IMG/VR virus record: IMGVR_UViG_3300021425_002620
DNA: 64,000 nt
From: a virus
Lineage: Duplodnaviria; Caudoviricetes
Direction: 5' to 3' (one strand)
The position numbers were made by a program, and so were the translations under genes. Below, piece after piece: positions 56,991-58,059 of this stretch (position 1 is the stretch's first letter; each line of letters opens with the position of its first letter). The notes beneath the pieces are model-generated. The model saw only the letters and a list, made by a program, of their open reading frames with translations. It made no database searches and was not told the DNA's origin.

Positions 56991-57019
56991 ATTATAAGCT
57001 CATTTTATGCTGTTGTCAA
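56991..57019 (-). promoter_or_regulatory. sigma70 promoter
   Basis: TTGACA-17nt-TATAAT. Confidence 0.8.
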
Positions 57020-57523
57020 CTGAAAAAGCTCTAAATCTTTGGCGTAAAAGTCATTGATTTTATTATAGTTTGCGTGTTCAGTTACATAATTTCTAATTTT
57101 TACTTTGTTTCTGTTACCATCAATTGTATTAATAATGTCTAGAGTTGCAGTCTTTCTAAAACAGTTCCAATCTTCTTGCATACGATGCAAAAGATTAGGT
57201 TCGAACTGATATAACTTTGTTCTGTTTGGATCGAGCATTTCAATAAATGTATGTTGCGGTTGTGTGTGCTTGTCTAGATGCAGTTTTTCTAAATTAAAAC
57301 TTCTAATATCTGTATTATCAAACTGCTGACATCTCCATAGGTACTCTGTTGCACCACTAATCCATCTATCTATTGGATCTCGTATTACAGCAATGTATGT
57401 GCGTCTATTGATGTGCTTGTAGTCAGTAGGTGTCCAACTACAGTATGCAGAGATTGCGGTGCTTGCATTCTTTGGAATTAATACAATACATGCTTTGTCA
57501 TTGTAAAAGCCAGTTCTAAACAT
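57005..57523 (-). CDS. sulfotransferase-family protein
   Basis: IPKNASTAI (5'-PSB loop), VIRDPIDRWISG (3'-PB), HTQPQ; start re-called because the track's extension lies within tRNA-Arg. Confidence 0.7.
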   Translation of the reverse strand: MFRTGFYNDKACIVLIPKNASTAISAYCSWTPTDYKHINRRTYIAVIRDPIDRWISGATEYLWRCQQFDNTDIRSFNLEKLHLDKHTQPQHTFIEMLDPNRTKLYQFEPNLLHRMQEDWNCFRKTATLDIINTIDGNRNKVKIRNYVTEHANYNKINDFYAKDLELFQLTTA

Positions 57524-57536
57524 GCTGTATTTACAT

Positions 57537-57613
57537 TGGCGCGGCTGAAGAGATTCGAACTCCTGACCCTTGGTTTCGTAGACCAATGCTCTATCCAGCT
57601 GAGCTACAGCCGC
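57537..57613 (-). tRNA. tRNA-Arg(ACG)
   Basis: Cloverleaf; TTGGT-CT ACG AA-ACCAA; encoded CCA. Confidence 0.95.
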
Positions 57614-57623
57614 GTAAAATAAT

Positions 57624-57652
57624 ATTATAGTTGACTTTCATCTAAATGTCAA
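57624..57652 (-). promoter_or_regulatory. sigma70 promoter directly upstream of tRNA-Arg
   Basis: TTGACA-17nt-TATAAT; contains palindrome GTTGAC-12nt-GTCAAC (57630-57653). Confidence 0.8.
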
Positions 57653-57655
57653 CCA

Positions 57656-57729
57656 TGGAGTGAGAGGTGAGAATCGAACTCACATACAAGGATTTGCAAT
57701 CCTCTGCGTAACCATTCCGCCACTCTCAC
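57656..57729 (-). tRNA. tRNA-Cys(GCA)
   Basis: Cloverleaf; GAGGA-TT GCA AA-TCCTT; U73; encoded CCA. Confidence 0.95.
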
Positions 57730-57734
57730 ATAAT

Positions 57735-57811
57735 TGGTCGGGGATGCAGGATTCGAACCTGCGACCTTTCCGCCCCAAACGGAACGCACTCCCAGACTGT
57801 GCTAATCCCCG
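57735..57811 (-). tRNA. tRNA-Pro(TGG)
   Basis: Cloverleaf; TTCCG-TT TGG GG-CGGAA; C1-G72; encoded CCA. Confidence 0.95.
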
Positions 57812-57885
57812 TGGCATAGGTGGAGGGAGTCGAACCCCCGCTTGCAGTTTTGGAGACTGCCGTGCTACCATAACACTTCACCCAT
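57812..57885 (-). tRNA. tRNA-Trp(CCA)
   Basis: Cloverleaf; GCAGT-CT CCA AA-ACTGC; A1-U72, G73; encoded CCA; no spacer to tRNA-Pro. Confidence 0.92.
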
Positions 57886-57917
57886 AAAAAAAGCCCCTTG
57901 CTTTCGCTTGGGGCTTT
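57886..57917 (-). terminator. intrinsic terminator (attenuator 3:4 hairpin)
   Basis: AAAGCCCC-AAGCGAAAGCAA-GGGGC followed by U7, ending at nucleotide 1 of tRNA-Trp. Confidence 0.85.
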
Positions 57918-57938
57918 CTCACGTACTCAAATATCACG

Positions 57939-58001
57939 TCAAGACAAGCCCCTACCTCTTGGCGGGCACCAACGAAAATTTGTTGTAACTGTCTTGAACA
58001 T
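57939..58001 (-). CDS. attenuator leader peptide MFKTVTTNFRWCPPRGRGLS
   Basis: 20 codons, AAGGA SD 7 nt upstream; codons 10-14 CGT TGG TGC CCG CCA match the four downstream tRNAs; 3' part carries the antiterminator strand. Confidence 0.8.
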   Translation of the reverse strand: MFKTVTTNFRWCPPRGRGLS

Positions 58002-58030
58002 GTAAGTATCCTTTTGTTTAGTATGTTACT

Positions 58031-58059
58031 ACTATAGTATCAGTATTTAGCTTTGTCAA
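58031..58059 (-). promoter_or_regulatory. sigma70 promoter of the leader/tRNA operon
   Basis: TTGACA-17nt-TATAGT; predicted +1 near 58024; CTAAATA also in the spacer. Confidence 0.8.

Follow-up and report, generated by a model that had tools for sequence, protein, structure and literature searches.

The amino-acid operons of E. coli and Salmonella carry leader-peptide attenuators, namely trpL, hisL, pheL, leuL, thrL and the multivalent ilvL. Other known systems are the attenuator of pheST, which acts on a component of the translation apparatus, and the T-box riboswitches, in which read-through of a terminator is governed by the status of transfer RNA (tRNA). Phages such as T4 and T5 carry arrays of tRNA genes, and why such genes are carried and how they are controlled is an old open question; we know of no translation-coupled attenuator ahead of these clusters. 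Here we describe a putative element of this kind in a stretch of 64,000 nucleotides (nt), called the window below, from an uncultured marine phage (Duplodnaviria; Caudoviricetes; IMG/VR record IMGVR_UViG_3300021425_002620). On its minus strand a promoter, a 20-codon leader open reading frame (ORF) and an intrinsic terminator are followed directly by genes for tRNA-Trp, tRNA-Pro, tRNA-Cys and tRNA-Arg. We read the element as a ribosome-mediated leader-peptide transcription attenuator that gates the tRNA operon, and put the probability of this reading at roughly three in four; most likely the phage makes the gated tRNAs only when ribosomes run short of them. The reading is based on competing RNA helices in the leader and on leader codons that co-vary with the gated tRNA genes among related phages.

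Competing helices in the leader

The layout of the module had been proposed in a first-pass annotation made from the sequence alone, and a check of the minus strand found every feature listed there at its coordinates (Table 1). Leader codons 10–14 are cognate to the four downstream tRNAs. Codons read by these tRNAs make up 6.0% of the codons in the long ORFs of the window, and the chance probability of five cognate codons in a row within 19 codons is 1.1 × 10−5. A run of at least five that includes all four amino acids is unique in the six frames of the 64 kb; the remaining runs are Cys or Pro repeats in antisense frames. The presence of a strong terminator 140 nt past a consensus promoter argues for regulated read-through.

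Folding predicted three mutually exclusive helices in the leader of the window: P1, the antiterminator and the terminator. For the ribosome-free state the RNA was folded from the predicted transcript start to the U run, and its minimum free energy (MFE) structure combines a long P1 helix, which joins the start codon to the stop codon, with the terminator (jointly −47.3 kcal/mol). For states with a bound ribosome, only the stretch of RNA that lies 3′ of it was folded. When the ribosome waits at codons 10–13, the antiterminator strand (segment 2) stays unpaired and accessible; segments 2 and 3 then form an antiterminator of 16 bp (−18.3 kcal/mol, z −4.3) that consumes the entire 5′ arm of the terminator. 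When folding begins at nt 44, the MFE structure is the antiterminator even if segment 4, the 3′ arm of the terminator, is included. The stop codon is part of segment 2, and a ribosome on it leaves only the terminator able to form. Arg10, Trp11, Cys12 and Pro13 are well placed to free segment 2. The earlier warning that a stall at Pro14 may be too close proved right: with Pro14 in the A site the front of the ribosome lies at nt 53 and the antiterminator is cut from −18.3 to −9.0 kcal/mol.

The first-pass annotation had also predicted that helices compete in the leader. Their existence is borne out by folding, whereas the size it gave for the antiterminator, about 11 bp, was too small. Its further observation that the leader repeats the 3′ arm of the terminator holds, with AGGGGCTT present at 57953–57946 and again at 57898–57891, as does the complementarity of 1:2 type between TCAAGACAG (57997–57989) and TTGTCTTGA (57947–57939). 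In the terminator itself, AAAGCCCC (57917–57910) pairs with GGGGCTTT (57897–57890), followed by seven T's down to 57886. A simple terminator scan of the window gave no hairpin here because the loop is longer than 8 nt.

Table 1. Features of the leader and of the tRNA cluster in the window
Feature	Position	Strand	Remark
Sigma-70-type promoter TTGACA-17 nt-TATAGT	58059–58054 / 58036–58031	−	11/12 consensus matches
Shine-Dalgarno sequence AAGGA	58013–58009	−	7 nt ahead of start codon
P1 5′ strand (segment 1): stretch after the Shine-Dalgarno sequence, start codon, codons 2–4	57989–58008	−	MFE structure of free leader
Leader ORF MFKTVTTNFRWCPPRGRGLS, 20 sense codons and TGA	58001–57939	−	ATG at 58001, TGA at 57941–57939
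Control codons 10–14, CGT TGG TGC CCG CCA (Arg Trp Cys Pro Pro)	57974–57960	−	cognate to the four downstream tRNAs
Segment 2, antiterminator 5′ strand AGGGGCTTGTCTTGACGTG: codons 17–20, stop codon, 4 nt	57953–57935	−	folding
P1 3′ strand: last two codons, stop codon, post-stop spacer	57922–57948	−	MFE structure of free leader
Segment 3, shared: antiterminator 3′ strand or terminator 5′ arm	57925–57910	−	folding
Intrinsic terminator hairpin with U7	57920–57886	−	−18.9 kcal/mol, z −6.1
tRNA-Trp(CCA), first gated gene	57885–57812	−	begins right after the U run, zero spacer
tRNA-Pro(TGG), second gated gene	57811–57735	−	
tRNA-Cys(GCA), third gated gene	57729–57656	−	
Second promoter TTGACA-17 nt-TATAAT, in the cluster, before tRNA-Arg	57652–57624	−	12/12 consensus
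tRNA-Arg(ACG)	57613–57537	−	attenuator control partial only

Relatives of the element

To gather related elements, marine viral and metagenomic contigs were searched with the phosphoesterase encoded nearby and with a 20-nt motif that is conserved. An element profile matched once in each of 253 metagenomic phage loci (denoted by L numbers below), invariably just upstream of tRNA-Trp. These loci represent 124 distinct combinations of leader and tRNA set and 87 distinct leaders. ORF and structure statistics refer to 63 distinct elements (variants), and the quantitative codon tests to the 96 of the 124 combinations with at least 300 nt of contig past the last tRNA. The exact motif of the window had zero matches among viral contigs, the nearest record (G001) is without this region, and the nearest isolates share only ∼35% identity in DNA ligase. 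The family motif was found in none of the bacterial and archaeal genomes, and there is thus no sign of a host origin. Matches in metatranscriptome contigs were mostly tRNA look-alikes of other organisms; one 121-nt contig from an RNA library covers tRNA-Trp and 14 nt from the tail of the terminator, and was judged too weak as evidence.

All variants retain a promoter, which in the relatives is likewise of the TTGACA/TATAGT type, a Shine-Dalgarno sequence, an ATG or GTG start, an ORF of 18–22 whole codons, the terminator and the U run; no homologue examined keeps the terminator without the ORF, the case that the first-pass annotation had named as speaking against itself. The last upstream GGA ends 7–9 nt before the start codon in 59 of the 63 variants, and frame 0 of the leader is open in all 63, versus 25 and 13 for the other two frames. 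If the element were a non-coding small RNA or a purely structural RNA with an accidental ORF, its strong and conserved secondary structure would be accounted for, and the attenuator RNA rnTrpL can reportedly act in trans; however, the open frame, the Shine-Dalgarno spacing, the retained start codons and the whole-codon lengths make this extremely unlikely. A match to Rfam is also missing: at E ≤ 1 the window gives only tRNAs, with no leader family and no T-box. Weak matches below threshold to YrlA, Thr_leader and MicC were discarded (Thr_leader reached 19.6 bits, the threshold being 55 bits).

Variation in the peptide is greatest in its middle, and its conserved ends are where the RNA helices lie. 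Furthermore, no promoter was found between the terminator and tRNA-Trp in the loci, so that the tRNAs depend on read-through of the terminator. Both observations bear on the idea of a separate micro-protein gene, with tRNAs derived from other transcripts or from a polymerase that ignores the terminator and with an incidental codon match. The unit is indeed a complete promoter–ORF–terminator cassette, and a genome of this size could encode transcription factors. However, a peptide that varies most in its middle and is conserved at the helices, the missing promoter and the co-variation of codons and tRNA genes described below leave this explanation with very little probability.

Across the variants the terminator has a mean energy of −19.5 kcal/mol; 60 of the 63 are predicted to form it when a ribosome occupies the stop codon, and 57 in the free RNA. 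The region of segments 2 and 3 averages −19.8 kcal/mol, compared with −9.4 kcal/mol when segment 2 is shuffled (z −3.7). Cognate P1 partners pair at −12.6 kcal/mol versus −9.5 kcal/mol for swapped partners (p = 2 × 10−4). ATG starts go with TGA stops and CGTG or CATG after the stop, GTG starts with TAA and CGCG or CACG; these two compensatory P1 pairs hold throughout 60 of the 63 variants, and the remaining three are ATG/TAG leaders of a divergent clade (L035 type). The corresponding partner-swap test of the antiterminator was not significant (p = 0.085), because the GGGG/CCCC core is invariant and the segment limits vary. Alignment folding (RNAalifold on MAFFT alignments) yielded no more than a small hairpin and the invariant GGGG/CCCC stem, since codon insertions and deletions spoil the alignment; folding of single sequences and partner-swap tests were used in its place.

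In a tree of the flanks of 92 loci the leader types are scattered, with at least 16 changes of start-codon state. This suggests frequent recombination, by which these phages exchange leader modules and tRNA genes.

Two further arrangements were seen between terminator and tRNA-Trp. In L029 (5680–5770), and also in L021, L027, L047, L051, L100, L128 and L147, an insert of 75–90 nt separates the U run from tRNA-Trp; the insert has a long closing stem (ACTACACTA ... TAGTGTAGT) and no Rfam match, and may be a small structured RNA or a processing element. L005 (902–972, plus strand) and likewise L006 carry in this gap a second mini-ORF, MTDSEYWRWMKSQVE, with two Trp codons and a GGAG of its own.

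Leader codons follow the gated tRNA genes

The set of tRNAs past tRNA-Trp is varied among the loci (Pro, Cys, Ser(UGA), Gln, Tyr, UAU-anticodon, CAU, Arg, Glu, Lys, Gly and Phe). The first-pass annotation had asked whether the control codons of related phages change with the downstream tRNA set, and they do. ATA-ATA doublets adjacent to Trp accompany a UAU or CAU tRNA, Tyr codons ahead of Trp accompany tRNA-Tyr, Trp-Pro-Ser or Trp-Cys-Pro-Ser accompanies tRNA-Ser(UGA), and Arg-Trp-Cys-Pro-Glu accompanies Arg(ACG) together with Glu. In single cases the position before Trp is Tyr, Gly or Arg in line with the tRNA set, and the sole locus with tRNA-Phe shows a single Leu-to-Phe codon change. Of the 11 leaders that have no Cys codon, 10 belong to loci lacking tRNA-Cys.

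In the 96 combinations we counted 289 leader codons cognate to the leader's own set, Trp excluded, versus 189 ± 8.8 on permutation of the tRNA sets (z = 11); with Cys and Pro also excluded the numbers are 139 and 52.6 ± 8.1, respectively. Fisher tests for single tRNA kinds gave p values of 1.5 × 10−7 for the UAU tRNA and 3 × 10−4 for the CAU tRNA (both with ATA), 1.1 × 10−5 for Ser(UGA), 2.3 × 10−5 for Cys, 1 × 10−4 for Gln, 1.3 × 10−3 for Arg(ACG), 7.5 × 10−3 for Glu and 0.04 for Tyr. Because related sequences inflate Fisher and permutation tests, we also counted phylogenetically independent pairs on the supported branches of a tree built from the flanks with the leader ORF left out. For seven tRNA kinds pooled, with Pro and Arg(GCG) omitted, 17.2 pairs changed in the same direction and 0.1 in the opposite one, with no difference in 14.7 (sign test, 1.5 × 10−5); the same picture was obtained on 56 rows.

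Leader codons were not associated with the tRNAs of the ungated upstream cluster (all p > 0.2, n = 30). In the neighbouring protein genes ATA makes up 1.84% of codons with the tRNA and 1.76% without it, compared with 15.1% and 1.1% in the leader. These two controls indicate that the link is specific to the gated tRNAs. We had considered that the leader, with Thr and Asn codons in its first half, reports the whole tRNA repertoire of the phage, and abandoned this given the lack of association with the upstream cluster; a general drift in codon usage as source of the match is ruled out by the unchanged codon usage of the neighbouring genes.

The same results bear on the signal that the element would sense. 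The attenuator could respond to Trp or Cys starvation of the infected cell, with the tRNAs as part of a starvation response: leader-peptide attenuators all sense charged tRNA, so amino-acid shortage must open this one too, and Trp is invariant, being present in every leader. However, a pure starvation sensor needs no matching of codons and tRNA genes, and the control codons follow the gated genes rather than the upstream cluster or the codon usage of genes. We therefore regard starvation as an unlikely primary signal.

Two of the gated tRNAs are unusual. The tRNA labelled Ile(TAT) by ARAGORN in L001 (5513–5606, plus strand) measures 94 nt, has A73 as discriminator and, owing to a long variable arm, a class II shape; a 94-nt UAU tRNA is also found in L020, L021, L106, L133, L147 and L156, and its shape is unusual for a decoder of AUA. 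A tRNA with CAU anticodon lies in the gated cluster of L009, L001, L133, L153 and L119. It tracks leader ATA-ATA doublets as strongly as the UAU tRNA, which suggests that it reads AUA, as a lysidine-type tRNA-Ile2 would, and not AUG.

The attenuator reading and its relation to known systems

We propose the following course of events. Host RNA polymerase would start at the consensus promoter, and a ribosome would begin to translate the 20-codon leader. If the codons up to about the 13th (Arg-Trp-Cys-Pro) are decoded slowly, the ribosome would be held upstream of segment 2, which could then pair with segment 3; with the terminator blocked, the polymerase would continue into tRNA-Trp, tRNA-Pro, tRNA-Cys and then tRNA-Arg. 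If decoding is fast, the ribosome would reach the stop codon and cover segment 2, segments 3 and 4 would pair, and transcription would stop at the U run. Without a ribosome, P1 would sequester segment 2, again leading to termination. Since the tRNAs produced read the control codons, such a circuit would be a negative feedback that holds tRNA supply at demand.

Several points weigh against this reading. First, neither near nor distant searches of the INPHARED genomes found the element in any cultured phage, and the mosaic of leader module and flanks implies a modest number of independent events. Secondly, the structural support has gaps: the co-variation in P1 may reflect only two allelic forms, and the antiterminator core, being invariant, shows none. 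The terminator remains the MFE structure in the stalled state in 59 of 63 relatives, so that control must be kinetic, as in trp, and a short GGGG:CCCC helix is predicted in 51 of 63 even when no ribosome is present. In 24 of the 63 variants the G run begins only 12–13 nt past the first TGG base; at this distance a ribosome stalled for want of Trp-tRNA would just reach segment 2, and only codons before Trp are clearly permissive. Thirdly, the codon match is incomplete. Cys codons persist in 20 of 30 sets without tRNA-Cys, and no match of codons and tRNA was seen for Arg(GCG), Gly(UCC), Lys or Ala in the 96 combinations. Pro codons are invariant irrespective of tRNA-Pro (p = 0.27). The omission of Pro and Arg(GCG) from the pooled sign test was chosen after the results were known; when both are added, ∼20 pairs change the same way and 1.6 the opposite way. 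Finally, tRNA-Arg has a promoter of its own, as had been cautioned earlier, and this arrangement recurs in the relatives L030 and L134.

Sensing of tRNA leaves the invariant Pro-Pro unexplained. Its role could be the pairing of CCCGCC with the G run of segment 2, which is predicted in the free RNA of the window, or a poly-proline pause that parks the ribosome on segment 2. Taken further, an intrinsic pause or arrest at Trp-(Cys)-Pro-Pro (poly-proline, dependent on elongation factor P, or TnaC-like) might itself set the position of the ribosome, with the variable codons secondary. This would fit with Trp and Pro-Pro as the invariant residues, with Pro codons that do not track tRNA-Pro and with the CCCGCC pairing. 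However, a ribosome paused at Pro-Pro lies over the G run, where it is expected to favour termination, and the co-variation of ATA, TGY, TCR, CAR, TAY and CGT with tRNA genes would be left unexplained; we consider an intrinsic pause as the main determinant very unlikely.

As to purpose, the data support no more than an element that senses how the codons read by its gated tRNAs are decoded. The purpose proposed in the first-pass annotation, a response to the destruction of tRNAs by host nucleases, is compatible with the data and, like any anti-defence role, is speculation.

The surroundings of the module hold further features. Within 1 kb lie two more perfect (12/12) sigma-70 consensus promoters on the minus strand, at 57019–56991 and, inside the cluster, at 57652–57624. 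The promoter-rich area looks like an early region transcribed by the polymerase of the host. This argues for canonical usage of sigma-70 and Shine-Dalgarno sequences in that host. In the gap between tRNA-Ser and tRNA-Thr a 24-codon ORF (59173–59099, minus strand) codes for a very small peptide that resembles a zinc ribbon and has two CPxC motifs (MNTCPECK...CPNCRVKR). Just past tRNA-Arg, the ORF 57005–57586 (minus strand) gives a weak PHROG match to galactose-3-O-sulfotransferase (E-value 1 × 10−4); its true start is probably the ATG near 57524, because the listed TTG start overlaps tRNA-Arg.

If the proposed attenuation is true, tRNA supply would be sensed and matched to demand during infection, and attenuation would extend from amino-acid metabolism to the decoding machinery. 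The part would be simple and portable, consisting of a consensus sigma-70 promoter and ∼140 nt of RNA, and would allow direct tests of codon compensation, of the replacement of degraded host tRNAs and of the evasion of anticodon nucleases; the ∼100 natural variants are a ready-made mutational series. We lean slightly towards a broader view, in which codon-matched attenuators are a general modular ‘tRNA-stat’ of large phages, each gated block having its own test peptide and the leader being rewritten when tRNAs are gained or lost. In that case leaders could reveal what odd phage tRNAs decode (here, that the CAU tRNA and the 94-nt UAU tRNA with the long variable arm both serve AUA), and would show when phages meet tRNA shortage, including that caused by tRNA-cleaving defences of the host.

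With the amino-acid attenuators the element shares a short ORF near the promoter whose control codons lie in a cluster, an RNA of four segments with 1:2, 2:3 and 3:4 helices, a stop codon positioned so that the terminating ribosome masks segment 2, and a terminator more stable than the antiterminator, hence kinetic control; as in ilvL and thrL, there are several different control amino acids. In contrast to them, it would regulate tRNAs and not biosynthetic enzymes or a synthetase, what the operon makes would itself be sensed in a direct feedback, it is encoded by a phage, its control codons evolve with tRNA gene content, and there is no similarity in sequence or in Rfam. The pheST leader likewise attenuates a component of the translation apparatus through a leader peptide that senses charged tRNA; however, it is bacterial, responds to one amino acid and controls phenylalanyl-tRNA synthetase. 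T-box riboswitches also couple terminator read-through to tRNA status, but a T-box RNA binds uncharged tRNA directly via a specifier codon and the T-box motif, independently of translation, and controls synthetase or amino-acid genes; its leader is untranslated and ∼200–300 nt long, whereas the leader found here comprises ∼140 nt with a conserved ORF and without a T-box motif. With the tRNA clusters of T4 and T5 the locus has in common a phage tRNA array in an early region with host-type promoters. Leader-peptide attenuation of tRNA genes, in phages or elsewhere, was not found in full-text searches of a literature collection that does not cover many subscription journals. The class of mechanism is a known one; new are the tRNA output, the direct feedback and the co-evolution of the leader with tRNA content.

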